Origin: a virus
Strand: one strand, 5' to 3'
DNA: 64,000 nt
UHGV virus genome: UHGV-0084588
In this document: positions 1,667 to 41,159 of the stretch, in pieces
Layout: each line of letters begins with the position of its first letter
How positions within the stretch are numbered: position 1 is the first letter of the stretch
Notes under the pieces: model-generated
Databases searched by the model: none
Seen by the model: the letters and a program-made list of their open reading frames with translations, nothing else
Told to the model about the DNA's origin: nothing
Program-made: the position numbers and the translations under genes

Positions 1667-1675
1667 TGTATAAAG

Positions 1676-1748
1676 ACCATTGAAGTTAGAGGAATTAACA
1701 CCCGACTAATAATCGGTTATTTCGCAGGTTCGAATCCTGTCATTGGTC
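1676..1748 (+). tRNA. tRNA-like element (73 nt), anticodon loop cu-AAU-aa, identity uncertain
   Basis: Canonical T-arm gcagg-TTCGAAT-cctgt, 7-bp acceptor stem with one U-U mismatch, D-stem gtta/taac with GG in loop; atypical A8 and weak anticodon stem. Confidence 0.45.
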
Positions 1749-2384
1749 TCCCGAATTAGAGCAGTCGTACAGTGGGTAGATTTTCCCGTCAGCCTTCAAC
1801 TGAGATACGTCTGCTCTGATAACTTCTGCTCTTGCTCACGGGTAGAAAGCTCCTTAAAAACGTGTAAACACCTACCGATTAAGTTCGGACTTACGTTTAG
1901 GGCCGTAGGGTCCTGGTAGCACGACTACCGAAACGGTTGTACGGTGGGAGGATATCCTCCCACCTGCATCCATCAAGAATTTAATTATTGGGTTTTCCCC
2001 TAAGTGTAACGTGAATACCCTGTAATGTGAATTGAGAGTTACGTGTTAACTCGACGGTACCGGTCGTTGATTTTTTAGTAAACCTTCATCGTCCCATGTC
2101 TGCTGCATTTGGCTGGTACTGAACTTTGTCGCTAAGCCTGGTGAGGTGGCTACACACCGAGGCTGGGGCTCGACACCCGTTAGCGGCACCCTTTTTGCGT
2201 TATTGTCAGTATTCTGAAGCTGTGTTCAGTGACAATAGCGTTTTTTATTCGCGTTGGCGTTTGTACCATTGCTGCCACTGCCTGCTGCGCCTCAACAAAC
2301 GGTCAACGCGTCCCACTAACCCACACGTCGGGGTATAGCGACGTACAACAGAACGAGTAGTAGTAACAGAACGAGGTAACAGAA
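1749..2384 (+). other. structured non-coding region with multiple hairpins
   Basis: No ORF with RBS; perfect hairpin ggtgggagg-atat-cctcccacc (1945-1966); tattgtcag...ctgacaata stem (2201-2238). Confidence 0.35.
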
Positions 2385-3032
2385 ATGCTTACAGTAAAAC
2401 GCATCATTAACGGCGACCGTGTCATCACTGTTCACGAACGTGTACGTTTAGGTGACAAAATGTCCCGTGTTTACAAAGAAGCACTTAAAATCGTTAACGG
2501 CGAAGATAATGAATTGTGTTTTGATAACGCGATTGATTTGCCGAGAAAACCGAAACAGGTAGGTTATACAGCTTTAACTGATATGTCCGTAGAGGAACAG
2601 AAAAGCACCTTGGCCAACCTGCATCCGTTTTTGCACAATGTGTCAGATTGGACCGTTGTCATTGGAGGTCGACCTATTCCAGAGGATGTACCACGTGTGG
2701 TGATCGTTAACCCACGTATGCCGTCCTTCGAAGAAAAGAATTCGCCAGTCGACGAAATTTATATTCCTGGCAATAATTTCTATTGCCGGTTTTGTGGCTT
2801 TACACAGCGTGAAATGACGTATGTGATGCCAGCTCAAGAAATCCAATTAGTCCGCGAGCTGATTAACGAAGATGGTGATACCTTCTATCAGAATCAGCTC
2901 CGTAGCGGTAAGCACTCGGTTGACGAGGCGATTGGCGTTTTACTCGTCGACGATGCTTACGAATTTTTCTATCCAGGGGATGTGGTTTACATCATGAACA
3001 ATGAAGGTAAAACCATTGATACCCTGCGATAA
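2385..3032 (+). CDS. hypothetical protein (215 aa)
   Basis: ATG with RBS cgaggtaacagaa; followed by terminator-like hairpins. Confidence 0.6.
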   Translation: MLTVKRIINGDRVITVHERVRLGDKMSRVYKEALKIVNGEDNELCFDNAIDLPRKPKQVGYTALTDMSVEEQKSTLANLHPFLHNVSDWTVVIGGRPIPEDVPRVVIVNPRMPSFEEKNSPVDEIYIPGNNFYCRFCGFTQREMTYVMPAQEIQLVRELINEDGDTFYQNQLRSGKHSVDEAIGVLLVDDAYEFFYPGDVVYIMNNEGKTIDTLR

Positions 3033-9713: not shown

Positions 9714-12026
9714 GTGGAATACATTTCTCCTTTTCGTTTAACGGTAGATGAATACCATCGTGATATTGATGTCAATGATGCCTACCGCGAACAGGTCGCG
9801 TTATACATTCATAACGTGACAGCACAAAAATACCCTTTAGAATTTTGTCGTCAGGAAGTCGATGCTCTTATTGCTCCTGGCGGTGAGTTAGCAACCGAAT
9901 CACCCGTGTGTAAGATGTGGGTGCGAAATCAGAAAACGGGCGATCGTGAGGAAAAATACACTACCGTCGATAAGCTATTTAAAACCGTCATTGACAAACA
10001 GATTATCTCCGCACCTTCGTTAACTTTTTATTTGCCCGAACACGTCAAACGTTCTAAGTTGTCTGAATTCACAGCAGCTAACGTAGCGAAACGTGCTGCG
10101 GTAAAAAAGGAAATGTTTGCAGCAGCAGCAGCGGGCAATGAAGTATTAAAGATCAACAAAAAGAACGAACAGAATGCGGTCAAGACGCTGAACAACGGTA
10201 TGTCTGGTGCATTCTCCTCTCCGTACACGATTATTTTCAACCAGTCTTCACACTCCGTACTGACGTCCACTTGCCGTACTGCAACTTCGTTCGGCAATGC
10301 TGGAAACGAACGTTTATTAGGAGGTAATCGTCATTACGATACCCCGTCACGCATTATTGATCATTTCTTATCTATCGGTACTTTAACCGATTGGAATAGC
10401 TTTAAGAAATGTATGGAGACGTATGAGCTTCATTACCCGTCGGTAGAAGAGGTGATGGAAGTTATTCACTATTCTGCTGATTTCTACTTTAAGAACGAAG
10501 AGGGGATGGAGTTCGTTGAGCATTACGTTAGTAATGTATCACCGTTGACGCGTGCCGCGTTTGTTTACATGGGTGATTTTTTCCACCTGGCTAAATACAA
10601 CGATAAGTTCATGCGCGACTTTATTGGTGCATTAATTACCCCTGAAGCGCGAGTTGATACTGAGGGCTGGACTGATACGGACTGGGTTGCTGCTGAGAAG
10701 ACCATCGATGGTGATATGCAGATTATTATCTCACAGTTCCGTACCGACGTAGTACCGATGGGTAAAGCGTTCAGTGACGTTAAGAAACTTGACGGTAATA
10801 AAAAACCCTTGCCGTGGGATCAGCAGGATGGCTATAAAGAACTAATTCGTTCCGCGCTGTTCTTACAGAAAACGATCGGTAAATACGCACTACTGATTCG
10901 TAATATTCTTACCACGAAAAACTTACCAATCAACATTGCTCGAATGCCGGATGTGGTTCGTCGTGTAGGCGTAGTATCTGATACTGACTCTACAATGATG
11001 ACTGCGCAATGGTGGGCAATCTGGTACACCGGTAAACATTACGGTGAGATAGCGACCCGCGTTTCCAATGCGATGATCTATATTGCGACACAGCACTTAC
11101 GGCATTTGATGGCGAGTATGTCAGCAAACATCGGCGTGGCGAAGGAGCGCTTGTTCCTGTATGCAATGAAGAACGAATTTAAGTTTGATTCGTTTGCATT
11201 GACTACCAAAGCAAAACATTACTTCTCACTGATTACCGGTCAGGAAGGCCAGCTGAAAAAAGATCCCGAGCTGGAAGTAAAAGGTGTGTCTTTACGCACA
11301 TCTAACATTCCTCCGATTATCATGAAGGAATTTAAGAACACTATCAAAGGGCTATGTGAAGTTGTTGCCCGTGGTGATCAGATCGAAATCATTCCGTTAC
11401 TGGAAAAGGTTGCCCAAATCGAACACACGATTATGGATTCTATTCGTTCTGGAAATCCAGGGTATTTGAAAACGACGAACATCAAGGAACGTAGCGCTTA
11501 TAACGAGAAGGATGAGAAGAACTACCATTACCATCGAATGTATAATGCTATCTTTGGTCCGAAGTTTGGTTATTTGGAAGAACCGCCGTACGATGCTGTG
11601 AAACTTCCGGTAACACTGGAAAACAAAACGAAGATTAAAGAATGGATTGACGGTATCGAAGATCCGATCATCAAGAACGGCGCATCGGCGTGGTTTGAGG
11701 AGACAAACTTCCGTAAATATAAAACATTGATTCTACCAGAACACTTGGTGGAAAACTACGGTATCCCTAAAGAGCTTATCGATATCGCAGATATCCGTCG
11801 TACTGCTTTCTCTACGGTTGAACCGTACTATCACATTCTCGAATGCTTAGGTGTGTTCATGATGGATAAAAACAGGATGAGGTTGTTGTCAGATTTCTAC
11901 GATAAAACCGAGGAGAAAGACGAACTGTATAAGGAATTAGCGGAAGTACAATACGTTAAGAAATCGGAGAGGGCAGGGGATGACGAAGAAGACGATGACG
12001 AAGAAGAGGTTTTTGACGACGAATGA
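9714..12026 (+). CDS. putative family-B DNA polymerase, C-terminal (polymerase) fragment, with acidic C-terminal tail
   Basis: Motif B-like KTLNNGMSGAF, motif C VVSDTDS, KKRY-like KAKHY; no exonuclease motifs or motif A in this ORF; GTG start with agagg RBS; B-to-C spacing is unusually long. Confidence 0.45.
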   Translation: MEYISPFRLTVDEYHRDIDVNDAYREQVALYIHNVTAQKYPLEFCRQEVDALIAPGGELATESPVCKMWVRNQKTGDREEKYTTVDKLFKTVIDKQIISAPSLTFYLPEHVKRSKLSEFTAANVAKRAAVKKEMFAAAAAGNEVLKINKKNEQNAVKTLNNGMSGAFSSPYTIIFNQSSHSVLTSTCRTATSFGNAGNERLLGGNRHYDTPSRIIDHFLSIGTLTDWNSFKKCMETYELHYPSVEEVMEVIHYSADFYFKNEEGMEFVEHYVSNVSPLTRAAFVYMGDFFHLAKYNDKFMRDFIGALITPEARVDTEGWTDTDWVAAEKTIDGDMQIIISQFRTDVVPMGKAFSDVKKLDGNKKPLPWDQQDGYKELIRSALFLQKTIGKYALLIRNILTTKNLPINIARMPDVVRRVGVVSDTDSTMMTAQWWAIWYTGKHYGEIATRVSNAMIYIATQHLRHLMASMSANIGVAKERLFLYAMKNEFKFDSFALTTKAKHYFSLITGQEGQLKKDPELEVKGVSLRTSNIPPIIMKEFKNTIKGLCEVVARGDQIEIIPLLEKVAQIEHTIMDSIRSGNPGYLKTTNIKERSAYNEKDEKNYHYHRMYNAIFGPKFGYLEEPPYDAVKLPVTLENKTKIKEWIDGIEDPIIKNGASAWFEETNFRKYKTLILPEHLVENYGIPKELIDIADIRRTAFSTVEPYYHILECLGVFMMDKNRMRLLSDFYDKTEEKDELYKELAEVQYVKKSERAGDDEEDDDEEEVFDDE

Positions 12027-13485: not shown

Positions 13486-13528
13486 ACCAACACTACAATT
13501 GTATTAAACCTTATAAGGATTAAGTAAA

Positions 13529-15376
13529 ATGGCTAAAGAGTTTATTGACAATCAAAACGACGTTGTGACTGGTGCTGCTGGTTCTGCTGCAGATCCAATT
13601 CCGTCTTTCGGTGGCGCGGGAGCTGCTACTGTGGATAATACCAATGCGGCCAACGCTTTTGGTGGGATGTCTAAAAACATCTCCACTTTCGATAAAGCTT
13701 TCGGATACATGTCTTTCGTGTCCACTGCTTCTCAGTTCACTAGCCTGATTGAGAAGATGGCGGAGAAGAACACATACCTGCGTAACTTCCGTTGGGGTGT
13801 CATTGACGGCATCAACTCTGAAATGGGTTCTGCTGCATACGTGGCTGGTCCGTCCGGCGATAACCATAACGAATGGCTCTACGGCATCCTGTTCTTTGAA
13901 CATGGCCAGTCCATCCGTTTCTACGAAATCAACGGTAAAGAAAACTACTACACCCTGGCGCAGCTGTTCAGTCAAGAAGGTGTGATGAACAACATCACTA
14001 ACCAGATTGCAACTCAACACAATCTGCCGAGCGTACAGTTCATGGTAATGAACTGCGTACCGGAACTGGGTAAAACCATGAACGAAGAATGGGCTAACCA
14101 GCTCATGGGCCAGATTGCACTGGGTATCTTCGGTCGTCATTCTGGCTACCTGGGCTACCTGAAAATGACCCGTTCTGATCGCTTCACCGCGCAAGTTAGC
14201 GTAGTTGAAGAAGGTTCTGTAACTGACGTTAACGGTTCCGCACAGCGTGCTGACCTGATGGTTGTGGTTGACCATACTCGTACCGGCAACAACGATAATA
14301 ACCCGACGCTGTTCTCTTCTGAACGCCTCCAGAATTATCCGAGCGTTGCAGGTGTTGGTTACATCAACCTCCGCCATAAAGGTAAACCTCAGACTCTGAC
14401 CAACGGTACTCAGGACCTGCGTCAGCTGGAAGCCGAAGTGGTTGTTTCCCTGATGGATTCTCAGTCCTCTGGGGCAATGGCACCTATCGAGCGTCAGCTG
14501 ATTGAACTGGCCGCGTTCGCACAAATCGCCACTATCGGTGGCTGGCGTGAACGTTTCATGCAGTCGCTGAACAAAACCGATCGCCGCTTCTCCCGCGTTC
14601 TGGAGTATGTAGAATGGGGCAGCGAAAAACCTGACCTGAGCAAAATCGACGGTAACCGTGAAGTTATCGAGAAATGCCTGGACACCTTCGCTAACCCGAC
14701 TGCAGCTCTGGTGGTGAACCATCGTGCAGGTAACGGTATCGGTGGTCTGTCTACTCTCCTGAGCGAAATCGGGATGGGTAACACCAACGCACTGTACACC
14801 CTGTTCAACATCCTGGATAACATGGCCAGCAACGGTGCGACTAAGTTCAGCACTCGCTTCAAAGCACTGCTGGGCAATGTCACCAACTTCGAGTGCAAAC
14901 ACGTTGTTATTGCCGGTTGCCCGACCATCTCTGGCCAGTATTTCAGCAACAGCCAGAAACGTAGCTTCCAGGATATGGACTTGGTTTCCGCTCTGACTAA
15001 AGTGGGTGACAACCAACGCGATGCGATCGACTACATCAGTGCACAGTCCTACTCTCACCGCTATCTGAATGCGCGTGACCAGCGTCTGTACCTGCTGAAA
15101 ATGGCTGCGTCCATGTTCGGTAGCAAACAGCCGCAGGTAACGGGTGAAGCGTCTGACCTGGCGATCAATCCGTTGTTTGGTAAGGCACTGGTGGAATACA
15201 TCACCGAAAACTGCAACTTCCAGGTGAACGGTGTTACCGCAGCGAACAGCCTCACTCACTCTGTGTTTGTTAACACGGGTAATGAGAACTTCGCTCTGTC
15301 TGGTAGCGGTCCTAACGCATTTGGTAGCGATTTCGGTATGTCCTTCGCTGCAACTGACTGGCGTCCGACTTTCTAA
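13529..15376 (+). CDS. abundant 615-aa protein; candidate phage nuclear-shell (chimallin-like) protein, alternatively a major capsid protein
   Basis: Strong bias to E. coli-type optimal codons; tandem promoter repeats upstream; strong terminator downstream; lies directly upstream of the RNAP beta-prime N-terminal gene, which from memory matches the phiKZ gp54-gp55 arrangement. Confidence 0.45.
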   Translation: MAKEFIDNQNDVVTGAAGSAADPIPSFGGAGAATVDNTNAANAFGGMSKNISTFDKAFGYMSFVSTASQFTSLIEKMAEKNTYLRNFRWGVIDGINSEMGSAAYVAGPSGDNHNEWLYGILFFEHGQSIRFYEINGKENYYTLAQLFSQEGVMNNITNQIATQHNLPSVQFMVMNCVPELGKTMNEEWANQLMGQIALGIFGRHSGYLGYLKMTRSDRFTAQVSVVEEGSVTDVNGSAQRADLMVVVDHTRTGNNDNNPTLFSSERLQNYPSVAGVGYINLRHKGKPQTLTNGTQDLRQLEAEVVVSLMDSQSSGAMAPIERQLIELAAFAQIATIGGWRERFMQSLNKTDRRFSRVLEYVEWGSEKPDLSKIDGNREVIEKCLDTFANPTAALVVNHRAGNGIGGLSTLLSEIGMGNTNALYTLFNILDNMASNGATKFSTRFKALLGNVTNFECKHVVIAGCPTISGQYFSNSQKRSFQDMDLVSALTKVGDNQRDAIDYISAQSYSHRYLNARDQRLYLLKMAASMFGSKQPQVTGEASDLAINPLFGKALVEYITENCNFQVNGVTAANSLTHSVFVNTGNENFALSGSGPNAFGSDFGMSFAATDWRPTF

Positions 15377-15403
15377 TAAGTTGGTAAGTAGTAAGCAGTA
15401 GTT

Positions 15404-15447
15404 GAGGGACAGGGGAAAACCCCCTGTCCCTTCCCTCTCTTTTTTTG
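15404..15447 (+). terminator. rho-independent terminator
   Basis: hairpin gagggacagggg-aaaa-cccctgtccc followed by T-run. Confidence 0.7.
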
Positions 15448-15460
15448 TTGAGGATTCGGC

Positions 15461-16828
15461 GTGGAACATAAACTAGAATATTACGGGATTTCAGGGCGAC
15501 TAATTAGTCACGATAAAATGCTACGTGACTGTATACAAGAAGCGGAGGAAAAAGGCTACAAACCCCCGATTATTATCAATGACGTTGCTGCAACGATGGA
15601 TACCATCGAAGCGTCAGAGATGATTAACCAAATACTTCAAAACCGAATCGTTGATGAAACACTCAACTCGGCTCCTATTTGCAGTCTGACCTGCGAATCA
15701 CCTATTACCCATCGTTATAATCTTGGGTTACGTTGCCCACATTGTGGTCATGTTGTTTCTGAACATCGGATTACGTCCGAAGTTTGGCTACGTGCACCCG
15801 ATGAGATAGGTAACTTTATCAATCCACGTTTTTGGTCTCTCTTTAATGCTTTCTTTGGCTCTAAGCTGAAAAAATTTAATCGTAACAAAGTGACGGTAGA
15901 GCGTGGTTCTGATTTGCTGCTATGGCTAATCGATCCGTACTACCATCCAGAAAAGGACGAAGGAACACGTGCTCGTGTGGTGAAAAGAATCCTCAGCGAA
16001 CATGGTTTCGAACGGGGAATTCGAAACTTTATCGACCACCATCGAACCGTCTTTAATATCCTTACGTCCCCGGAAGCTTGGAAGGAGATTTATCCACCGA
16101 CGAAAAACAACCGTTATGAGAGTGAACGCGTACGCTTAGAATGGCGTGAGTTCTTTCAGGAACAATCGTTCTCATTCTTTCCAAGACACCTTCCGATTAT
16201 TTCATCGAAACTGATCGTTACAGAGGAGCGCCGACAAGGTATCTTTATCGATCCCGTTTACACCAGTGCCATCGATGCAGTAAAAAATGTGGCGTTGTTG
16301 TACACGAATGCACGTCGTATCGAACCACGATTTATTATTCGTCGCGCGATCAAAGCGAATCGACAACTTGCGTATTTCTATATTGACCATCGTCAGGAAG
16401 TGATGGAAGGTAAACCTGGGTTCTATCGGGCAAAACTCGGGTCAACGCACGTACCGTGGGGCGGACGTGTGACTATCTCTCCTATCTCTGAACCTCACGA
16501 TGCGTTGAAAGTTATTGCGCCTTGGCGTTGGTTAGTTCCGTTGGCGAGTGTTCACATTGAGAACAAGTTAGGTCGACGTGACTACACACCTCGACAGTGT
16601 GAACGAATTATTGCATTCGCGGCAATGCAGTATGTACCGTTGGTACATGAAATTATTAATGAGCTGATTAAAGAATCCCCCGGCGGATTCGGTTTAATGT
16701 TGGAAGTTCTACGTAACCCAACATTGGTTCAGCTTTCTATTCAGACATTGTTTATCTCGGCGGTACTGACAGATGTAACACAATGTTCTCTGCGTATTTC
16801 TGATCGCGTCATCAAAGCACCTAATGCT
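15461..16828 (+). CDS. RNA polymerase beta-prime-like subunit, N-terminal fragment, exon 1
   Basis: Zn-ribbon C-x4-C...C-x2-CG; GKPGFYRAKLG...GGRVTISP matches [41 protein letters not shown] matches NRAPTLHRLGIQAF; ends ...KAPNA where bacterial beta-prime has YNA|DFDGD; GTG start. Confidence 0.75.
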
Positions 16829-17178
16829 AAATACTGGCCCACTAGACGGGAAACCTCTAGTGCGTATCCCTCGAATTGCTGGGAACTCCTAAAGCTTACG
16901 ATCCCGACAGGGTGGCGAAAGTCAGAAACAATTCGTAAGATAGCCTATGCTAACCAATAATGCTAAGGGTTGAGATAATGGATAACCAGCAGCGATGAAA
17001 ATCGTTCAACGACTATCGAAAGGGTAAAACCGAGTAGAGTAGCTGCTTAGTTTAGCGGCGAAGTGGGGGAGACCTACGGGTAGCAATACCTACGGTTATG
17101 ATATAGTCTGTGCCCATGTGAAAGCATGGGAGGGTGTCATTGCACACCTGCTCCAAAAGGAATGGGGTGGACAAACAG
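16829..17178 (+). ncRNA. group I self-splicing intron (350 nt, no internal ORF) interrupting the NADFDGD motif
   Basis: Exon 1 ends in U and intron ends in G; joining gives ...APNA-DFDGDQ...; core-like elements (consensus from memory): P aattgctgggaa (16874-16885), Q aaccagcagc (16984-16993), R gttcaacgacta (17004-17015), S gatatagtc (about 17100-17108). Confidence 0.75.
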
Positions 17179-17418
17179 GATTTCGATGGCGATCAGTTAC
17201 AATGCAGATTGGCAATCGACCAGATTGAAATGGAACTGGGCATGGCTTATCGTCCAGACAACGGGTTTATGTCAAGCACGAATGTGGATGAGGTTTCGAG
17301 CTGCATGATTCTCCATAACGAGAACATCAGCAACATAAACCGTTTCTTCCAGGATACTGAAGAGGACCTGGAGGCCGGTATCGCGCTTGACTCGGAATTA
17401 TTAAAAATGGCGGGGTAA
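17179..17418 (+). CDS. RNA polymerase beta-prime-like subunit, N-terminal fragment, exon 2
   Basis: Begins DFDGDQ...; ...MSSTN matches bacterial ...MMSTNN; same frame as ORF 17134..17418, whose apparent GTG start has no spaced RBS. Confidence 0.7.
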   Translation, partial: DFDGDQLQCRLAIDQIEMELGMAYRPDNGFMSSTNVDEVSSCMILHNENISNINRFFQDTEEDLEAGIALDSELLKMAG

Positions 17419-18475: not shown

Positions 18476-19144
18476 ATGGATCAAGAACCGGGAAAATTTA
18501 ATGGGGTGCCCATTGAAGAACTTTCTGGCCGTGCTAAGTTTGAGTTTGAGAAACTTCTTGAAATGGAAGAGATGCTTAAACAGGGCCAGGGTGTGTGCAG
18601 CGTGTTTACTGAATCGATGTTCCGTCGACAAGGTTTACCGCTGTTGTCGGGGATGCTGGATGGTACGTTTAACGAAGATACCTGGACGGATTATGTAGGG
18701 AGCGCTTTCGTTCCGTTACAGATTGTTTCGGATTCGGATAATTCAAAACTGCTCTTTACGATCCCGCCTCTGCTTAATACCGGTCGGTCACTTCAACATG
18801 TTGACGGTCAGCCATCGCTCACCGAAGAAACAGAGATGATTCGCCAGCAAGCCGATATCATTTCCGAGGTCGGTGAACGGCAGATGTATCAGATGATCGA
18901 TTATACGCTGGATGGTATCGAACAGTTATCGTACGAAGAAAATGCACTTCGTGCAAAACAGGTTATCGATCTGTTAAACTGGATCTTCCGTCGTTATAAC
19001 GTATCAGGGCAATTACCTTATCCTGAAGGACTTGAAGAATTGTGCAACCGTATCCAAGGACGAAAGAAACCTGCAACGGCGGCACAACCTGAACAGTCCT
19101 CCCCTGCTAAGGGAAGAAGAATCATCGATGAAGAGGATTACTAA
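18476..19144 (+). CDS. hypothetical protein (222 aa)
   Basis: ATG with taagg RBS immediately after upstream stop. Confidence 0.55.
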   Translation: MDQEPGKFNGVPIEELSGRAKFEFEKLLEMEEMLKQGQGVCSVFTESMFRRQGLPLLSGMLDGTFNEDTWTDYVGSAFVPLQIVSDSDNSKLLFTIPPLLNTGRSLQHVDGQPSLTEETEMIRQQADIISEVGERQMYQMIDYTLDGIEQLSYEENALRAKQVIDLLNWIFRRYNVSGQLPYPEGLEELCNRIQGRKKPATAAQPEQSSPAKGRRIIDEEDY

Positions 19145-20276
19145 TCCGCCACCGAAACCAGTTGGCGTCAAACGCATTTTCTCAACGGGCGATGTACATT
19201 TACTGCACCGTCGTGTACCGACGTGGCATATTGTTAACGTGCTCAAGGAAACCTTAGAACGGTTCGATAATACGATTGACGCTATTTATATAGCTGGCGA
19301 TTTATTTGATGATTCCCGGCATTTGCGGCAAGAAGATTCTCAAGAAGCCATAGGGTTTTTAACCTGGTTATTGCTCTGGGCCAAACAGACGAATACCGCT
19401 ATTCGTGTCTTGGAAGGAACACCCTCCCACGATCATAAACAATCGAAAATCGTTGAAGAGTTAAATCAGGCGGTGAGTGCAGATTGTTTGTATCTGGATA
19501 AGATTGGGGTGTTTTACGACGAGGCGTTAGGAGCGACTATCGGTTGGGTCCAGGACGAGTATAAAGCCCTGGGTTCTGAGTCTATTGATGCTGCCGCAAC
19601 AGAACAGGAAATGGCTGAATTATTAGCCACGCGCGGTATACAGCAGATGGATTTCTGCTTTATGCATGGCTGCTTTCAGTTCCAAGTTCCCGTTGAGTCT
19701 ACCCGCTTTTTCCATACAGATTTTTGGGAACCGTTAGTCAAGCATTTGATTATCATCCACCACGATCATCGTAGGAAACAATTGGGTAAGATTCGTGTAC
19801 CAGGCAGCCCCGATCGCCTGGCAATGGGTGAAGAAGAGGACAAAGGCTTTGCTATTGTCGATTTCACTCCTGATTTAGCCAGGGATTATTTCTTGGTTAA
19901 TGAACGCGCTTGCCCGCAGGTTAAAATTGCTGCGGAGGAGGACTACGAATCGCAGTACGCGAAATGTCTCTCTGCGCTTGAGTATATTGATACTCATCCG
20001 TCCTCGGTAATAGGACGATTGGAAATTGAATATTATCCCGATTCTCCATTGGCGGAAGCCATTACTCGGTGGAAATCGCAATATTCATTCCATATTTCAG
20101 GTACGCGTATACGTACGCCTGAAGAGGAGCAAATTCTCGCAGCCGGTTTTGCTATCGACGCAGAGGTCGAGGAAACCATCTCTGAAGAGAATGTTGAAGC
20201 GATTTTGTTAGAAGCATTAGTGCCGTTTAAATACGATGCACAAATTGTCACTGACATTATCAGGAGCATCAAATGA
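19128..20276 (+). CDS. calcineurin-like metallophosphoesterase, Mre11/SbcD-like nuclease candidate
   Basis: Motifs GDVHLL (D-x-H), AGDLFDD (GDxxD), GTPSHD (GNHD-like) in canonical order; start taken at in-frame ATG 19128. Confidence 0.5.
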   Translation: MKRITNPPPKPVGVKRIFSTGDVHLLHRRVPTWHIVNVLKETLERFDNTIDAIYIAGDLFDDSRHLRQEDSQEAIGFLTWLLLWAKQTNTAIRVLEGTPSHDHKQSKIVEELNQAVSADCLYLDKIGVFYDEALGATIGWVQDEYKALGSESIDAAATEQEMAELLATRGIQQMDFCFMHGCFQFQVPVESTRFFHTDFWEPLVKHLIIIHHDHRRKQLGKIRVPGSPDRLAMGEEEDKGFAIVDFTPDLARDYFLVNERACPQVKIAAEEDYESQYAKCLSALEYIDTHPSSVIGRLEIEYYPDSPLAEAITRWKSQYSFHISGTRIRTPEEEQILAAGFAIDAEVEETISEENVEAILLEALVPFKYDAQIVTDIIRSIK

Positions 20277-27136: not shown

Positions 27137-29374
27137 ATGAAAACGCCAGTAGAGCTAATGAGCAGTGTGGCTGACCGTGAGATTAATATCACCGAAGTAT
27201 CAGGTGCAAGGGCATCGATGGTAGGCAACCATATGAAGTCTGCGGTCCCTATCGACAATCCTGAACCATCGCCACATTTTACAGGGGCAGATATAAACTA
27301 CCACGATTTTCTGTTCAATGACGTTGTAGAAGATCCCGGTAGCATCTGCCACTATATGACCAAAGACGGTCGTCAGCGCCGTGCGACATTTACACGTTAT
27401 GGTCGTCGTGGGGATTCTAAAGCGTTGGAACATGCTATCTTCTTCCGCCGTGCAGAAATGAAGGGCGGTAAAACCATGATAGATGTGTTGGAGATTAACT
27501 TCTATACTAACCACGACAACATCTTCTCATCTGAGAAACGTGAGTCGATGAAACTGCGTAGTATTTTACGTGGTGAAACCGATCAGTTGGAAAAGGATGA
27601 AATTCTTACAACAATGTCGTGTATGGTGGAAGGTGAGTACGCTGATAGCGTCGTGCTACCAACCGTTACGATTTCGCATCCTGATATTATCGAGGATTCT
27701 TACACCATCTCTGAGTACGCCGCCCAAAAGCTCCACGGCTACGGTTTGAAAATCGTTGAAAAGACGCTACGCGAAGACGAGTTTTTACTGGATACTTACG
27801 GTTATATCGATCCGAATGGTAATCGTGTCCCACGCTATTTCCCGGATGTGGGGGAAGCTATTCGTGATGATGGGCTGGTCATTGCATCACGTCGTTTCGA
27901 TGAGCTTTACGGTGCGATTGATGCGTCGCTTGGGGAAACCCAACACGTCTCCCCGTTCTTTGATAGTTGCGAATATGTGGATGCCGATCCCGTCCATTAT
28001 AAAGCACGCCTTGCGGGCGACAAAGAACTGATGGAGAGTAGCGGTACACGCATCGTCGATATCCAGGTGTGGCGTGATGAAACGTCTTGCGCGAATGGTA
28101 CCAACAATATTTCTTGTACCGAAGAGAACAAACGAGAACTGGATAAATACGCATTAGCATTGAAAGACTATTACAATGCCATTGTACGTTTCTATTTCTC
28201 GATGTCTCGTGACAAAAATATTATCTGGTCACCGAAGGCGTGTGTGCTGTTGGAAAAAGCCTTCGCTTCCGAAACGTACGAAGTCTATCACGAGTTTCGT
28301 GAAGAGATTCGCGTAGTGATTGATGAAGCGATTCGTCGTGGTGAATATGGTAAAGAAAATGTCAGTCAGCAAATTCTTTCTAAGTTGACCGCACCAGTAC
28401 AGCGTGGACTCAGCGATCCCATCAACACGTATACCATTCGTATTGCTGTTCGTTATCCGATCCCGGTAACGGTGTCGTCTAAGATTACTGACCGTTCGGG
28501 TACGAAAGGGATTGTTGGACGCGTGTTACCCGTTGAACAGATGCCGATTAACGAATTCGGTGAACGTGTTCACGTTTTACGTTCGATGAACGCTGTAATT
28601 CGTCGCTCGACTTATGCAGCACTATTCCACATGTATTGGTCAGCTGCGTCTGAGCAGTTGAAGATGCGTCTTAAACCAATGCTGGACGAAGGCCGTATCA
28701 GTGAATGTTGGGAAATCCTGATGGATTATCTGTCACGTTATAATCCTGAATGGGCCAACACACTACAGGTAACACATCCTACGGAGGATTTACAACGCGA
28801 ACTCTTTAAAGAGATTTACGATTTTACAATACGTATTTACTTGCCACATGAACTTGACGACACGCCAGTCGATATCAGTGAACGGTTGGGTGAATTTAAA
28901 CCACGTAAATCAAAACTTCTACTTACTAACTTCGACGGTAAGCAGGAATGGACAAAAGATGAATTTTACGTAGGTGGTGTGGAAACATTGCGTCTGGATA
29001 AAACAGGTCGTGAGTTTTCCAGTATCTCGTCAATGTATCTGAATTATCTGGGTACGATAGACGCATCTAACCAAGGTCGTGGCTCGTATCCGATAAACTA
29101 TAAAACGCTAAAATGGGCTGGTCCTTCGGAAGAACGACTGTTAGCGGGTTATGGTCCAGGTAACTACGAAGAAGTTCACGATAGGGCAAATAACCCTGCG
29201 GTACATCGTGAGATTTTAGTAGGGCTTTATCGATCTCAAACCCCATCTAATCCGGGTCCATTAGTAGACCGGAATAAATTCCCGTTAGGGGATTCGCAGA
29301 TTGACAGGATGATGAAAAACATCCACAACTGTGAAGGGTTTGAATTGGTGAAAATGAAAAGGGGCGATGAATAA
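27137..29374 (+). CDS. RNA polymerase beta-like subunit, C-terminal fragment
   Basis: ARASMVGNHMKSAVP matches ANRALMGANMQRQAVP; IIEDSYTISE matches YNFEDSILVSE; GTRIVDIQVWRDE matches GTVIDVQVFTRDG; DRSGTKGIVGRVLPVEQMP...SMN matches GRHGNKGVISKINPIEDMP...SRMN. Confidence 0.75.
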   Translation: MKTPVELMSSVADREINITEVSGARASMVGNHMKSAVPIDNPEPSPHFTGADINYHDFLFNDVVEDPGSICHYMTKDGRQRRATFTRYGRRGDSKALEHAIFFRRAEMKGGKTMIDVLEINFYTNHDNIFSSEKRESMKLRSILRGETDQLEKDEILTTMSCMVEGEYADSVVLPTVTISHPDIIEDSYTISEYAAQKLHGYGLKIVEKTLREDEFLLDTYGYIDPNGNRVPRYFPDVGEAIRDDGLVIASRRFDELYGAIDASLGETQHVSPFFDSCEYVDADPVHYKARLAGDKELMESSGTRIVDIQVWRDETSCANGTNNISCTEENKRELDKYALALKDYYNAIVRFYFSMSRDKNIIWSPKACVLLEKAFASETYEVYHEFREEIRVVIDEAIRRGEYGKENVSQQILSKLTAPVQRGLSDPINTYTIRIAVRYPIPVTVSSKITDRSGTKGIVGRVLPVEQMPINEFGERVHVLRSMNAVIRRSTYAALFHMYWSAASEQLKMRLKPMLDEGRISECWEILMDYLSRYNPEWANTLQVTHPTEDLQRELFKEIYDFTIRIYLPHELDDTPVDISERLGEFKPRKSKLLLTNFDGKQEWTKDEFYVGGVETLRLDKTGREFSSISSMYLNYLGTIDASNQGRGSYPINYKTLKWAGPSEERLLAGYGPGNYEEVHDRANNPAVHREILVGLYRSQTPSNPGPLVDRNKFPLGDSQIDRMMKNIHNCEGFELVKMKRGDE

Positions 29375-31473
29375 TGAAGGGCACTCCAGTTCACGTGCGT
29401 GATCTGTGTAAACTGAACTCGGATCAGGTGTGGCTATTGCGCGGCAGATATGAAGTGACGTTTGATGACGGGGTAACCTTAAACATGTCAGGACGTCACA
29501 TTAAAATCAGTTGGCCTTATTGGGGGCTAACACGATTTTATCCGCAGATCCCAATCAGTTCGCAAATGGCGTATAAACATGGCGATACCGCTACAGACGA
29601 CGCACATCTGAAGTTTATGTCATTGGCAGCTGTAGCGGCTCGTAAAGCGGGTGTGGATTTAGCAGACACCCGTTATTTATTACAGCAGCACGTTTATGCG
29701 GATGCGTTTAATTTATCGGTGAAAAATCTGTTATCGTATTGCGTCACGATTGACTACGATACGATGATGGAAATTTACCAACACCGAAACTTTACGCAGA
29801 TTCATCAGTGGGCACAAATGTATCCTACTGGGTACGACGAAGAAGGTCGGGATATGGTTGAGGAAGCGTATCTTCTTATCGAAGATATCTTCAAAGACCC
29901 ACAACTTTGTTTAAACCCCGTGGTGATGTCGGTCTTGGATAAGACCATCAAAATGAACCAGGTTCTTCAGGCGTATATACGCGGGAAAACATCGGAGATT
30001 GATTCTCGTGTTTATTCTAACCAGGTATGGGAAGGTTTCTTCACGGGCCTACATTCTGTAATTAGCCGTCTGAAAGAAGCAGGTGCAACGTCACGTTCTC
30101 ACCTGTATAACACCGATAAAATCGCTGATGCGGAATATGCGTCACGTAAGCTACAGTTAGCAGCTAACGTGTTAATGTATTTCGAATACGACGATTGTGG
30201 TACGCATCACGTTCATCGTCACACGTTTACAGAAAGTAAACTGGAGCGTAAGAAGTACGATGCGATGGTGGGAATGCGTTATCGTTTTGAAGGTGTGGGT
30301 GGCCCGTGGCTACGATTCGAGAAAGGGGAGTTTGAGAAAGTCTTAGGCAAACCTATTGAGTTTCGTACCGCGATGTGTTGTAAGGGGATGGCACGTCAAA
30401 GCATTTGTGCAACCTGCATGGGTGATTTGATTTATAACCTTTCGCCGGGAACGTCCCCAGGTCACTTGGCCTCAACCTCGATATCTGAAAAGGGTACACA
30501 GGGGATTCTCTCAACGAAACACTTGGACTTCTTACGCTATCTGCTGAATCTGGTGCTGACTCCAAGAATGCGGGATTATCTTGGTGAGTATAAACACAAC
30601 TCCGTAAAAGGATTGAGTTTACGGGAGAAACCGCAGTACGGTAATTGGGATGAATACCAACTCGTTATTTCTGATGAAGTTTATTCTGAAATCAGCCAAA
30701 TCGCGTATCATGACGATTTGGAAGTGATCGACGAAACGGCATTGCCGGAGATTAACGAACTGACCTTTTTGCGGTTGGATGAAGCTGGGAATGTGTTGGC
30801 TGAAGATCCCATTGACGTCCGTATGGGGGTTTGTGGTAACTTCTCGAAAGCCTTCTTGCATTTCTTCTTGAAGCAGCGTGATAACATTACATTCCCGTCG
30901 AAGAAACTGGTACGGATTCCCCTGAAAGGATGGAAACCGAGTTGGCCGATACTAATTTATACGAATCGGTCTGAATCTATGGCGGAGTTTGTAGCAGGGT
31001 TAGAATTGAAACTTCGTTCGGTTGCGTCTGATAAATCGGATACTTTCGAACAGTTCTCTGATGACTCAATGCGTTTGAGCAAGAAGTCGGGTAAGGTAAA
31101 ACCAACGACACTGGTTCAGATGCGCGGTGCTACGGAGAAACAATGTACGCACGCGTTATTTGATGTGTTTAAATATATCCAACGTAAGCTCGGTGGTATT
31201 CCGATGACACACATCGCGATTATGCTGGCGATATCACGCGTTGAATCACCGACCAATCCTTTCCCGGCGGTTGGGTTTGATAGTGAAGATGCTGATGTGA
31301 TGGATGGCAAACGTTTCGAGGATCACAACACGTTGATTGCGATGCGTTCAGCTGTACCGATGTTGTTATTCGAAGGCCAACAGAAAAACCTGGACAACGT
31401 GCGTTTCTACACGTCGCGTAAACGTCCGGCGTCGTTATACGACAATACGGTGGCCGCGACTATCATTGAGTAA
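29374..31473 (+). CDS. RNA polymerase beta-prime-like subunit, C-terminal fragment
   Basis: FEYDDCGTHH matches VTEDDCGTHEG; CATCMGDL...SISEKGTQGILSTKHL matches CAHCYGRDL...SIGEPGTQLTMRTFH; TAATG overlap with the beta gene. Confidence 0.7.
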   Translation: MKGTPVHVRDLCKLNSDQVWLLRGRYEVTFDDGVTLNMSGRHIKISWPYWGLTRFYPQIPISSQMAYKHGDTATDDAHLKFMSLAAVAARKAGVDLADTRYLLQQHVYADAFNLSVKNLLSYCVTIDYDTMMEIYQHRNFTQIHQWAQMYPTGYDEEGRDMVEEAYLLIEDIFKDPQLCLNPVVMSVLDKTIKMNQVLQAYIRGKTSEIDSRVYSNQVWEGFFTGLHSVISRLKEAGATSRSHLYNTDKIADAEYASRKLQLAANVLMYFEYDDCGTHHVHRHTFTESKLERKKYDAMVGMRYRFEGVGGPWLRFEKGEFEKVLGKPIEFRTAMCCKGMARQSICATCMGDLIYNLSPGTSPGHLASTSISEKGTQGILSTKHLDFLRYLLNLVLTPRMRDYLGEYKHNSVKGLSLREKPQYGNWDEYQLVISDEVYSEISQIAYHDDLEVIDETALPEINELTFLRLDEAGNVLAEDPIDVRMGVCGNFSKAFLHFFLKQRDNITFPSKKLVRIPLKGWKPSWPILIYTNRSESMAEFVAGLELKLRSVASDKSDTFEQFSDDSMRLSKKSGKVKPTTLVQMRGATEKQCTHALFDVFKYIQRKLGGIPMTHIAIMLAISRVESPTNPFPAVGFDSEDADVMDGKRFEDHNTLIAMRSAVPMLLFEGQQKNLDNVRFYTSRKRPASLYDNTVAATIIE

Positions 31474-36593: not shown

Positions 36594-37448
36594 ATGATTG
36601 ACATTTATACCGATTACGCCGCCGTTCTTACCGTCAATCGTGCGGAAGAACGTGCTGCGCCTTTCCTGGACTTAGTAACGCTGTGCATGGATTACGGTTA
36701 CGATGTTGCGTTAAGCGATGTGTATTGGCAACCGTCGTCTGATCCTGCCGACGAAACCGTAAGACTGGAAGGGATTATTGTAAAATGCGCAGTGGCGTTA
36801 GGTAACCGTTTAGGCGTTGCTTTAAACCCACAAGAAGTTTTCCGTAAACCGAAAGAGACCGTACGTATTCTAGACGGCATTACGTCTAAATTCGAAGAGT
36901 TCGAAGACACCGATACGTTATACGGTCTTGTGATGTCTGGAGAAACGCCAGAGTTTATCCTGGAAAGTATCTGCCGTTACGTGTACGGTGACGATAATAT
37001 CCATTTTGAAGATTTGGTCATTCGTGTTTCACCCCGTGTAATGACAGTGATGCGTAATTATCTCTCAGCTATGGTTGTGGATGAGCAACTCGCTGTAGGT
37101 AACGATGTACGTCTGACGCGTATTGCAGAATACTTGCGTCTTTATCCGCAAAATCCCTCTGCGTTCGTATTCTTAAACTTACCTGAAGATCCTGATTTGA
37201 CGGTTGTCCAACAATCGTTAGTCTTTGACGTCGAGGATTACAGCGAAACAGAATTGCTCGAGATGTATACGGTAGGACTTTCGATTATCGATAACGATGA
37301 CTTCGATGACGCGTATGCTGATCTTTCGACGAACTTAGAGAAACTTAATAATGATGGGTTACAACCCATTACTGTTTTACAACCTGCTTTAAAAAGCCTA
37401 CGGGTGATTTATCGGGTTGAGGAGGCAGAGCACGATGACGAGGTTTGA
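36594..37448 (+). CDS. hypothetical protein (about 284 aa)
   Basis: ATG at 36594 with ggaaaagg RBS (ORF track begins at TTG 36582). Confidence 0.5.
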   Translation: MIDIYTDYAAVLTVNRAEERAAPFLDLVTLCMDYGYDVALSDVYWQPSSDPADETVRLEGIIVKCAVALGNRLGVALNPQEVFRKPKETVRILDGITSKFEEFEDTDTLYGLVMSGETPEFILESICRYVYGDDNIHFEDLVIRVSPRVMTVMRNYLSAMVVDEQLAVGNDVRLTRIAEYLRLYPQNPSAFVFLNLPEDPDLTVVQQSLVFDVEDYSETELLEMYTVGLSIIDNDDFDDAYADLSTNLEKLNNDGLQPITVLQPALKSLRVIYRVEEAEHDDEV

Positions 37449-38736
37449 GTTCTTAGTAGCGGCATGTAAAGCCGAAGCATGGCGTCGCTTGGTTTGGCGC
37501 ATTGCTATCTTTAACATGTCGGTGTTTCCAACTGGGCGTGAAGAACCCGAAGCGTTTGATATTACGTACATTGACGGCTTACCGCATTATTACGCTGTAG
37601 AAGACGGCAAGGGCAGTTGGGAACCGATTACCGACGGTGTAAAGGATCAGGAGCTGTTTATCCCTGAAGAACAGTTCGAACTCCGTCCCGACGACTATCC
37701 CGGTCTAGAAGGTCCTATCCCCACGACAGTAGGGCGATACGTTTTTAACTGGATTGTTATCTGGTATGCTTTTGGTACACGTTTACCTTATCTGGCGATT
37801 TCACAAAACCCGTTGGAATACCGCAAAGAGATGCATCGGCGCTGTTTAGACCATGAATCCGATGAGCCAGAAAACGAAGGTGCGATTCGTCCGAGTATGA
37901 TTGAACGCTTTGTAAGCGGCTTACACGAACTCGCTCCTCTCACGTCAGGTATTGCACCAACCGGTACGTTACGAAGCCTTACGGTGCATCCTGATGCGTA
38001 TAAAATTCGCGATGCGTTGCTGTTGAAGCATAAGGATGAATTAGACGATCCTGCCGTTATCGTTAAGATTGAAAAAGCGTTGGATGAGTTAGACAAAGAG
38101 TGGTTGTCAGGTGACCAATCTATTGAGTTTTATAACTCGCCGAAATCACGGATGCGTCGTCGTAAATTAATGTTGATGTACGGTATTGAGTCGTCTTTTC
38201 AGGAAGGGGGACATTACACGCTCATTCCGAACGCGTTAGTTGAAGTTGATAAGGCGGGGATGGAAAACCTGGTTGCGAAATTCAACTCTATCCGTGAAGG
38301 TTCATTCTCTCGTGGTGCAGAAACAGCGAAAGGGGGTGAGCAGGTACGTATTATCCAGATGATTTTCCAGAACCATCGAATCGTCCCTGGTGACTGTGGA
38401 ACGAAACTAACGTATCCGGTTGTGATTACCGAAGATAACGTAAAACGTTACGTTGGGATGAATGCGATGGTTAATGGTAAACTGACGCCACTGACTGAGG
38501 AATATTTAAAGCAGCAGTTAGGTAAGGTGGTGCGGTTACGCCGACCCATCTTATGTCAGTATGGCCACATCGACACCTGCACAGCGTGTTCGTCAGCGAA
38601 TAAAGGGGAAGAACCTCGTGCAATCGCTGCGGATATATCCTCGGCGTTCTCTAACGTTATGTCCGTGGCAATGGCCGCGATGCACGGTAAAGAGACTGTG
38701 GTACACGAATTTAATCCATCGATCCACATTACGTAA
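37435..38736 (+). CDS. second RNA polymerase beta-prime-like C-terminal fragment (paralog of 29374-31473)
   Basis: SFQEG...REGSFSRGAETAKGG matches NFREG...HGARKGLADTALKTANSG; IVPGDCGT matches VVTEDDCGT; CTACSSANKGEEPRAIAADISSAF matches CAHCYG...NKGEAIGVIAAQSIGE; same 65-aa DCGT-to-CxxC spacing as 29374. Confidence 0.55.
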   Translation: MTRFEFLVAACKAEAWRRLVWRIAIFNMSVFPTGREEPEAFDITYIDGLPHYYAVEDGKGSWEPITDGVKDQELFIPEEQFELRPDDYPGLEGPIPTTVGRYVFNWIVIWYAFGTRLPYLAISQNPLEYRKEMHRRCLDHESDEPENEGAIRPSMIERFVSGLHELAPLTSGIAPTGTLRSLTVHPDAYKIRDALLLKHKDELDDPAVIVKIEKALDELDKEWLSGDQSIEFYNSPKSRMRRRKLMLMYGIESSFQEGGHYTLIPNALVEVDKAGMENLVAKFNSIREGSFSRGAETAKGGEQVRIIQMIFQNHRIVPGDCGTKLTYPVVITEDNVKRYVGMNAMVNGKLTPLTEEYLKQQLGKVVRLRRPILCQYGHIDTCTACSSANKGEEPRAIAADISSAFSNVMSVAMAAMHGKETVVHEFNPSIHIT

Positions 38737-39261: not shown

Positions 39262-39309
39262 GTATTACCCTACTCCCATCGGGAGTAGGGTAACGTTTAT
39301 TTTTTTTTA
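39262..39309. terminator. bidirectional terminator; hairpin nearly identical to 44622-44669
   Basis: ttaccctactccc-atc-gggagtagggtaa flanked by A/T runs, between convergent genes. Confidence 0.7.
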
Positions 39310-41088: not shown

Positions 41089-41159
41089 GATTTCACTCTC
41101 AAATCTAGCGGCTGCTATACTGATTTGTGGGTAATGTAATTTCTCAAAAGGAAACACAA

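Follow-up and report, generated by a model that had tools for sequence, protein, structure and literature searches.

A group I intron without an open reading frame in the catalytic motif of a jumbo phage RNA polymerase gene

The interrupted polymerase gene and the limits of the insert

The DNA considered here, referred to as the window, is a stretch of 64,000 nucleotides from the virus genome UHGV-0084588. On its + strand, a gene predicted to encode the N-terminal beta-prime subunit of an RNA polymerase is interrupted by a 350 nt insert (16829..17178, +), which has the features of an IA-like group I intron with no open reading frame (ORF) of its own. The gene is preceded by the ribosome-binding site GAGGA and begins with a GTG start codon (15450..15463, +). 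Its first exon (15461..16828, +) is 1368 nt, or 456 codons, and forms the greater part of an ORF (15461-16960, +) that reads ...SLRISDRVIKAPNA up to the insert, then continues through 43 intron codons to a TAA at 16958-16960. The second exon (17179..17418, +) is 240 nt, comprising 79 codons and the stop, and its frame reads DFDGDQLQCRL...MSSTN from 17179. Both exon lengths are divisible by three. When 16828 is joined to 17179 the result is a 535 aa protein, ...VIKAPNADFDGDQ..., in which the junction (marked here and below by a slash) is ...KAPNA/DFDGDQ.... The insert is therefore between the alanine codon and the first aspartate codon of NADFDGD, the Mg-binding motif. The predicted sequence of the ligated exons is ...CCUAAUGCU/GAUUUCGAU..., and the junction-spanning peptide of the joined protein would be APNADFDGDQLQCR. 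The original prediction for this locus had exon 1 ending ...RVIKAPNA and the protein resuming 350 nt later at DFDGDQ...MSSTN, and reading of the ORFs bears this out.

The match of the joined protein to phrog_2987, 'RNA polymerase beta subunit', takes in the full length of the profile and runs through the junction (E 9e-164). A further match is to the phiKZ gp55 chain in PDB 7ogp_A (E 6.8e-39, residues 70-499), with which the protein aligns through ...KAPNADFDGDQL..., while bacterial rpoC (beta-prime) models, over residues 313-469, and Pfam RNA_pol_Rpb1_2 are matched weakly. By these similarities, the interrupted gene is the orthologue of phiKZ gp55, the N-terminal beta-prime subunit of the split non-virion RNA polymerase of a jumbo phage, which agrees with the earlier description of the host gene as a phage RNA polymerase beta-prime gene. 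The closest isolated relatives in protein searches are the Erwinia phages phiEaH2, Stratton, and Asesino and the Salmonella phage SPN3US, with 67-68% identity and no interruption. A megablast search of the gene region against the phage collection found no close DNA relative, and this phage is not among the deposited isolates.

The TAA at 16958..16960 (+), which lies in the loop of intron helix P5d, would terminate translation of the unspliced RNA. From its sequence, the unspliced RNA can be expected to yield only a 499 aa product, without any of the three catalytic aspartates. The presence of in-frame stop codons within the insert excludes an intein.

The covariance-model search of 16829-17178 found the Rfam group I intron family RF00028 (Intron_gpI) at 61.4 bits, against a gathering threshold of 50 (E 3.8e-13 for the 64 kb window). 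The alignment takes in the whole model, 1-253 of 253, over 16819-17130 of the window. Neither Rfam, at E values up to 1, nor the profile of this intron family found any other intron in the 64 kb. The core elements occur in the alignment in the order claimed for them originally: P, AAUUGCUGG (16874-16882); Q, CCAGCAGC (16986-16993); R, GUUCAACGACUA (17004-17015); and S, GAUAUAGUC (17100-17108). The only ORF of at least 40 aa wholly within the 350 nt insert is one of 40 aa in antisense, and no endonuclease is encoded there, as had also been noted.

The limits of the insert are seen directly in alleles of the gene that do not have it. Three such alleles (L011, L140, and L142) lack exactly 16829-17178, and the alignment gap cannot be moved by one base. 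The original placement of the junction between U16828 and G17179 is thus upheld. The intron-less target site reads ...CCTAATGCT/GATTTCGAT... across the junction, while L011, an IMG/VR sequence with exons of 95.5% nucleotide identity, has ...CCTAACGCT/GATTTCGAT... at the site. Junctions moved by one base either way were rejected, being at odds with these alleles and with the requirement for a terminal U in the exon and a terminal G in the intron; the bases are U at 16828 and G at 17178, as predicted.

At the 5' splice site, the strand G16826, C16827, U16828, and A16829 (16826..16829, +; exon position -3 to intron A1) would pair with the internal guide sequence UGGC (16835..16838, +; intron 7-10) to form helix P1, with cleavage after U16828. 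U16828 forms a wobble pair with G16836, and the other pairs are C16827:G16837, G16826:C16838, and A16829:U16835. The guide has changed together with the exon in related introns. The exon end GCU is matched by UGGC in the window, L010, VB_ZK_P1, phiKp_32, and EL; GGU is matched by GCC in JN03, EC001, and SaP7; and GAU is matched by GUC in the Vibrio/Photobacterium phages, where the site is one codon downstream. The exon base at -2 and its guide partner are thus C:G in the window, G:C in JN03 and SaP7, and A:U in the Vibrio phages. The 3' splice site follows the terminal, or omega, G of the intron (17178..17178, +; intron 350), and the sequence GGACAA(A/U)CAG immediately before the site is conserved in every intron at this position. 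A G before exon 2 ends every homologous intron examined. AUUU in exon 2 (17180-17183) can pair with AAAU in the intron (16829-16832), which would provide a P10. Together, the intron-less alleles, the canonical ends, and the co-variation of guide and exon fix the splice sites.

Structure and covariation of the ribozyme

The helix map was derived by hand from the Rfam alignment and from homologues; intron positions are window coordinates minus 16828. Pairs were counted in a MAFFT alignment of 31 dereplicated relatives, from isolated phages and viral contigs, that were collected with a local nucleotide profile hidden Markov model (HMM). The peripheral helices are poorly aligned by MAFFT and are under-aligned in this family set.

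In the window sequence, each of the 90 proposed pairs is a standard one. Over the 31 sequences and 90 pairs, 78.6% of cells are paired, compared to 62.5% when columns are shuffled and 35-43% when partners are slid by 1-3 columns. Changes on both sides are found for 63 of the pairs. The covariation score of 0.396 compares with 0.15 after shuffling and 0.07-0.13 when partners are slid. None of 500 shuffles reached any of the observed measures. With the Rfam score above its curated threshold and the co-variation of guide and exon, this supports the original assignment to group I. An unconstrained minimum-free-energy fold (z = -2.25) recovers P2, P3, P4, P5, P5a-d, P6, P7.2, P8, P9, and P9.2.

The core of the ribozyme is well supported. 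P3 is formed between 16867..16873 and 17064..17070 (+; intron 39-45 with 236-242), with 77.9% of cells paired and both-side changes in 6 of its 7 pairs. P4 pairs element P with element Q (16877..16882 with 16986-16991, +; intron 49-54 with 158-163); it is present in the Rfam alignment and is paired in 98.4% of cells. P7 pairs element R with element S (17011..17016 with 17103..17108, +; intron 183-188 with 275-280), is paired in 93.5% of cells, and makes a pseudoknot with P3. All 31 sequences have the pair G17011:C17108, without variation, at the J6/7 end of P7, and by analogy it is presumed to be the guanosine-binding pair. P6 is a hairpin with a GAAA loop (16992..17005, +; intron 164-177), with 77.4% of cells paired, covariation, and recovery in the free-energy fold.

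On the 5' side, P2 (16840..16862, +; intron 12-34) is a hairpin with a GAAA loop, found in the free-energy fold, in which all 9 pairs have changed on both sides. P5 and its extension occupy 16887..16982 (+; intron 59-154). P5 itself (16887-16889 with 16980-16982) and P5a (16895-16901 with 16933-16939) have both covariation and the fold in their favour, and the fold also contains P5b (16903-16912), P5c (16913-16924, with a GAAA loop), and P5d (16942-16971). Across this domain, 82-97% of cells are paired, with many both-side changes, the exception being P5b, which is weak at 41.9%.

P7.1 (17017-17032) and P7.2 (17042-17059) are peripheral hairpins within a poorly aligned region (17017..17059, +; intron 189-231). 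P7.1 is weak. P7.2 is recovered by the fold and has 6 of 6 pairs changed on both sides, with 54% of cells paired in what is a poor alignment. P8 (17072..17096, +; intron 244-268) is a hairpin with a GCAA loop, seen both by covariation and in the fold. P9 (17113..17130, +; intron 285-302), with a GAAA loop, is where the Rfam model ends; 87.1% of its cells are paired and 6 of 7 pairs have changed on both sides. Beyond the model are two 3' peripheral hairpins, P9.1 (17132-17149; intron 304-321) and P9.2 (17150-17168; intron 322-340), which together occupy 17132..17168 (+). P9.1 is paired in 64.2% of cells; P9.2 is paired in 94.5%, with both-side changes in 5 of 5 pairs and recovery in the fold.

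Over about 40 nt, the segment from P6 to P7 shares as much as 95% identity with introns of T-even-like phages. This likeness and the P7.1/P7.2 architecture point to subgroup IA.

Polymorphism, mobility, and alternative explanations

Within the phage population to which the window belongs, the intron is present in some genomes and absent from others. It is found in L139, L141, L143, and L144, and is not found in L140 and L142, which have more than 99% nucleotide identity to the window over 6.2 kb, identical flanks, and an intact 535 aa protein. The window is itself the first 64 kb of L144, which is contig Ga0495776_060627 (220,786 bp) of JGI metagenome 3300045988, with 100% identity and the same coordinates. 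Of about 20 contigs that encode the identical downstream protein, approximately half have the split gene and the rest have it intact. The intron-bearing copies are from four separate metagenome assemblies and differ at 3 sites in the intron, none of them in the conserved core. Source samples are JGI 3300045988 and ENA ERZ28566275, ERZ28644157, and ERZ27317085.

The intron is also present in a more distant relative. L010, from JGI metagenome 3300045988, has an intron identical to that of the window at 343 of 350 positions (98%), while its exons are 75% and 73% identical. An intron-less sister of L010, L012, has exons that are 98.2% identical to those of L010, so the sites at which the window and L012 differ could be followed through L010 for 200 nt each side of the junction. 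L010 is of the window type only at -16, -13, -4, +3, and +6, and is of the sister type again from -28 and +15. This is a short co-conversion tract. Such a tract indicates homing or recombination at the DNA level, rather than reverse splicing, and the intron of the window is, or very recently was, mobile by homing-type recombination.

No HNH, GIY-YIG, or LAGLIDADG endonuclease was found by PHROG and Pfam scans in the 40 ORFs of at least 150 aa in the window, a search that takes in neither the smaller ORFs nor the other 157 kb of the genome. With none in the intron or in these 40 ORFs, the enzyme would either act in trans or have been lost. Its source would most plausibly be the HNH/NUMOD proteins of sister introns at this site. 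ORF-less introns of 356 nt are found at exactly the site of the window in JN03, EC001, Lh1B, SPLA3, SPLA5c, and 1252, and VB_ZK_P1 likewise has an ORF-less intron there. At the same site, the introns of SaP7 and Proteus phage 7 carry a 288 aa HNH_3/NUMOD1 ORF, that of phiKp_32 carries a 339 aa HNH ORF, and that of EL carries an ORF annotated as a replication protein. In all four of these ORF-bearing introns the ORF is in an extended P1 loop and the remainder of the ribozyme is collinear with that of the window. The loop is closed by a stem of 9-12 bp (in SaP7, UUAUUCUGCU with AGCAGAAUA). With the ORF in the P1 loop (L006:1440-2843 in SaP7 and L009:~1425-2857 in phiKp_32), the 5' splice site is more than 1 kb from its guide.

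Taken together, the insert is very probably a self-splicing group I intron of 350 nt without an ORF, apparently of the IA type that phages usually have, located in the NADFDGD motif of the gp55 orthologue and mobile as DNA by means of an endonuclease supplied from elsewhere. The pre-mRNA would fold into helices P1 to P9.2, including the P3/P7 pseudoknot. The guide UGGC (16835-16838) would then bind the exon-end GCU and intron A1, with U16828 in a wobble with G16836, and a free guanosine bound in P7 would attack after U16828. The terminal G17178 would next occupy the same P7 site, exon 2 would be held by the short P10 (AUUU with AAAU), and the exons would be ligated. The ligated mRNA would give the 535 aa subunit with its catalytic loop intact. 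Since the unspliced product would not have the three aspartates and the orthologue is essential in phiKZ (PMC12571901), an active polymerase would depend on splicing. The original prediction that expression is splicing-dependent is therefore sound as a deduction, given the stop 43 codons into the intron and the essential orthologue.

Several points weigh against this interpretation. Catalysis, accuracy, and timing of splicing in vivo are deduced for the intron of the window from its sequence. P1 is short, with 4 bp and a 5 nt loop, and P5b, P7.1, P9.1, and the outer part of P8 are poorly supported in the broad alignment. No endonuclease that could explain the mobility was found among the window ORFs of at least 150 aa that were screened. 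There is an AAGGA 5-6 nt 5' of an in-frame GTG at 17167, from which gene callers predict an 83 aa ORF, and separate translation of exon 2 from this codon is formally conceivable. Finally, a long-read transcriptome of phiKZ had no spliced reads for its predicted introns in gp56, gp72, and gp179 (PMC10914365). Despite that result, the purified phiKZ enzyme (PMC4666361) and the solved structure hold a joined gp55 chain. The long-read result is a caution on inferring splicing from sequence, while the protein data show that joining takes place.

The alternative explanations are all weak, with dependence on a protein helper the least improbable of them. Splicing in vivo might need a host or phage RNA chaperone, or a maturase-like factor, which would then gate expression of the polymerase. 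ORF-less phage introns often splice better with chaperones, as the T4 introns do. The short P1, the large peripheral domains, and the absence of spliced reads from phiKZ under the conditions used (PMC10914365) are as a helper would lead one to expect. Yet the catalytic core is complete, the peripheral elements are tetraloop/receptor-like and conserved, close structural relatives in the T-even and Twort-like phages self-splice in vitro, and PHROG and Pfam scans of window ORFs of at least 150 aa found no sign of a maturase, which together make an obligate helper rather unlikely.

The polymorphism also bears on whether the intron might be dead, so that the gene is inactivated in a genome that is defective or is rescued by co-infecting intron-less relatives. 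Intron-less strains do occur in the same kinds of sample, a point in its favour. The allele has, however, been assembled independently from at least 4 metagenomes as genomes of approximately 221-226 kb, with its 3 variable intron sites outside the core. All of the core helices are intact in the window copy, and about half of the contigs carry the intron, where quick loss would be expected of an insertion that inactivates a gene whose orthologue is essential in phiKZ (PMC12571901). A dead intron is very improbable on this evidence.

It is also hardly credible that this is a truly split gene, in which the 499 aa product and a second one of 83 to 94 aa, starting at GTG 17167 or 17134, assemble without joining of the RNA. 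The beta-prime N and C halves are already separate genes in these phages, two ORFs are called at such loci both by gene callers (the 83 aa ORF) and in GenBank ('beta subunit 1' and 'beta subunit 2' in EC001), and AAGGA is 5-6 nt before GTG 17167. The break, however, would be inside a seven-residue Mg-binding loop, and the first piece would end in 43 intron-encoded residues. The Shine-Dalgarno-like sequence is within the P9.2 loop, and the introns of JN03, VB_ZK_P1, and EL have not conserved it. Moreover, the spacer is a genuine group I ribozyme whose structure is under selection, the gene is continuous in strains that are more than 99% identical, and the solved enzyme has the phiKZ orthologue as a single chain.

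The metagenomic source of the sequence might suggest misassembly, or a chimera in which an unrelated intron was put into the gene. This can be dismissed, as four assemblies made independently in different projects all have the insertion at this base, as does the 75%-diverged L010, and it has homologues in the isolated phages JN03, EC001, SaP7, and EL.

Genomic setting and comparison with known systems

The window phage is an uncultured jumbo phage of wide distribution. Several ENA metagenome assemblies contain near-identical genomes of 222-226 kb, and a 195 aa protein encoded downstream is listed in 225 blocks of the collection. Between the polymerase gene and the gene 5' of it there is a terminator-like hairpin, read from the sequence as GGGACAGGGG-AAAA-CCCCCUGUCCC followed by a T-run (15406..15447, +). 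The upstream gene is a 615 aa ORF (13529-15376, +) that matches phrog_8316, of unknown function, and is in the position that the nuclear shell protein gene has next to gp55 in phiKZ. It has no similarity to phiKZ gp54 (BLASTP E 1.2), to any PDB chain, or to any NCBIfam model. The label 'chimallin', for which gene position is the sole support, was rejected as a claim based on sequence. A stop-free antisense ORF of 649 aa (13520-15469, -) overlaps the 615 aa ORF completely and is probably an effect of composition.

An SbcD-like gene is found 3' of the polymerase gene at 19032-20276, as in phiKZ. There are three more RNA polymerase subunit genes (27137-29374, 29374-31473, and 37417-38736), all of which are uninterrupted and match their profiles end to end. 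The DNA polymerase is in two genes 27 kb apart (9714-12026, +, and 39307-41202, -), matching phrog_2927 and phrog_3011. A tRNA gene at 1675-1751 (+) is identified by ARAGORN as tRNA-Ile with anticodon AAT and scores 38.3 bits with the Rfam tRNA model; an isoleucine tRNA with A34 is unusual in bacteria and phages. An ORF of 215 aa (2385-3032, +) has similarity over residues 1-52 to the middle of phrog_17697 and over residues 191-215 to the C-terminus of phrog_1453, and may be a fusion or a gene with an insertion.

Introns are found at three staggered sites in the codons for NADFDGD: N/ADFDGD in phiKZ (L005 3170-4545), NA/DFDGD in the window and many others, and NAD/FDGD in the Vibrio/Photobacterium phages, namely Vibrio phage 2 TSL-2019 (L013) and Photobacterium phage PDCC-1 (L014), at 1950-2360. 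At all of these the exon ends in U and the intron in G, and the guide matches where it was examined. From these sequences, introns seem to have several target sites within the NADFDGD codons of these phages. At the start of the L013 intron (L013:1962-1985), the sequence AGCACTAACTTTAACGCT... encodes S-T-N-F-N-A again, repeating the N-F-N-A with which exon 1 ends, and could pair with a GUUAAAG downstream. It resembles a duplicate of the target site carried within the intron.

In the Raoultella phage VB_ZK_P1 and the Klebsiella phage phiKp_32 (L009), the first intron is followed by a 12 nt exon, GAT TTT GAC GGT (DFDG), seen at L008:2862-3190 in VB_ZK_P1. There, a second insert of about 305 nt follows (L008:2874-3178), after which GAT ACC ATG TAC TGT... 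resumes the protein. This insert is strongly structured (z = -3.88). Its fold opens with a P1-like hairpin (CGGU/AA with UUGCCG), which gives the proposed splice site a U-G wobble, and the last base of the insert is G. No Rfam family matches it at E values up to 1, while part of it is homologous to sequence in Aeromonas jumbo phages. Possibly the insert is a divergent group I intron, which with the first would flank a 12 nt micro-exon.

The exons of such genes have generally been annotated as separate genes. This is the case in the GenBank records MN445185 (EC001), MT799840 (JN03), OK428535, OR413581, OR413585, PP695294, OM456492, MT679221, NC_048747, and NC_048821, where they are labelled 'beta subunit 1' and 'beta subunit 2', 'alpha subunit', or 'hypothetical protein', the first ORF runs on into the intron, and there is no intron feature. 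Of the loci fetched, Goslar alone is annotated with an Intron_gpI feature, which is in a different polymerase gene. The window locus should be annotated as one gene, not two, and the same error is made in several GenBank records of jumbo phages and in the gene calls of metagenome catalogues.

Introns in the polymerase genes of these phages are not in themselves new. They have reportedly been known in phiKZ since its genome was described. According to a 2024 paper, the introns in phiKZ gp55 and gp180 were known from earlier work (PMC11512511), and a 2016 paper by Thomas et al. depicts the polymerase genes of phiKZ-like phages with introns (PMC5105663). The original prediction thus overstated the novelty of the finding, as phiKZ gp55 has an intron in this motif too, displaced by one codon (PMC11512511). 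In phiKZ, PHIKZ055 ends ...GCG CCT AAT, then come PHIKZ056 and a group I core, and ...AATACG/GCT GAT TTT GAC restores the frame in PHIKZ056.1. The mature chain is continuous in PDB 7ogp_A, where it is named as PHIKZ055 joined to PHIKZ056.1. The purified subunit is 56 kDa, and another subunit of the enzyme is named 'gp71-73' (PMC4666361). Neither the phiKZ structure paper nor the 2015 enzyme paper mentions the intron. The phiKZ intron is like that of the window in that it interrupts NADFDGD in the orthologous gene and has a related core (75.6 bits with Rfam and 153 bits with the family HMM). It differs in its site, which is one codon upstream (N/ADFDGD as opposed to NA/DFDGD), and in its length of about 1.35 kb, which includes the 334 aa HNH/NUMOD endonuclease gp56, where the window intron has 350 nt and no ORF.

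The SPN3US-like phages JN03, EC001, Lh1B, SPLA3, SPLA5c, 1252, SaP7, and Proteus phage 7 have unannotated introns at the same site as the window, with homologous ribozymes (approximately 70-72% identity and 52-69 bits with Rfam). Their host genes are unlike that of the window, having 67% protein identity and GGU (Gly) in place of GCU (Ala) before the junction, for which the guide compensates. SPN3US itself is a natural intron-less allele.

What was already known therefore includes an intron in the same motif of the phiKZ orthologue, and the deposited genomes contain unannotated homologues at the same base. What is new is the polymorphism within a population, the signature of lateral transfer with co-conversion left by an ORF-less copy, and the view of NADFDGD as a target with several sites. 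General knowledge of group I introns and of jumbo phage polymerases is unchanged. These phages do provide a clean natural system. One population has members with and without the intron at more than 99% identity; a diverged relative from the same metagenome has an intron that is 98% identical, beside a visible co-conversion tract; and of the sister introns at this very base some have an HNH gene and others do not. The spread of ORF-less introns could be studied in such a system. So could the question of whether occupancy by an intron shields an essential polymerase gene from the endonucleases of competitors, which would extend the result obtained with PhiPA3 and phiKZ.

In that case, the HNH endonuclease of a PhiPA3 intron nicks the homologous gene of phiKZ, which gives a competitive advantage (Birkholz et al. 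2024, PMC11620839; reviewed in PMC12908238). The PhiPA3 intron in gp210 is similar to the window intron in being a group I intron at invariant catalytic residues of a multisubunit RNA polymerase of a jumbo phage, which in the case of PhiPA3 is nucleus-forming, and in homing into intron-less alleles of related phages. It is different in that gp210 is a beta subunit of the virion polymerase and in having an active nicking HNH that interferes with phiKZ, while none is encoded in the window intron. As PhiPA3 and phiKZ demonstrate that an endonuclease can cripple an essential polymerase gene, it can be supposed by analogy that the ORF-less intron is kept because it is protective, splitting the NADFDGD DNA and thereby removing the site recognized by the HNH homing endonucleases of sister introns in co-infecting jumbo phages. 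This would explain the staggered sites, the polymorphism at about 50:50, the lateral spread with co-conversion, and the apparent double interruption in VB_ZK_P1 and phiKp_32, but it is a tentative suggestion and, on balance, not a likely one.

Splicing in T4 is coupled to translation, whereas nucleus-forming phages separate transcription from translation (PMC12908238). One of the closest isolated relatives, Asesino, is called nucleus-forming in the title of a work which that review cites. It can be speculated that, if the window phage is nucleus-forming too, ribosomes reading through into the intron would not disturb its folding.

The classical phage introns of T4 td, nrdB, and sunY, of Twort, and of the SPO1 DNA polymerase gene share with the window intron an overall architecture that includes GNRA loops and, as far as P7.1/P7.2 can be recognized in the window, these hairpins, and also a location inside a conserved catalytic region of an essential nucleic-acid enzyme. 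They differ in that they interrupt other host genes, that they have been found experimentally to self-splice, and that most of them carry, or once carried, genes for endonucleases.

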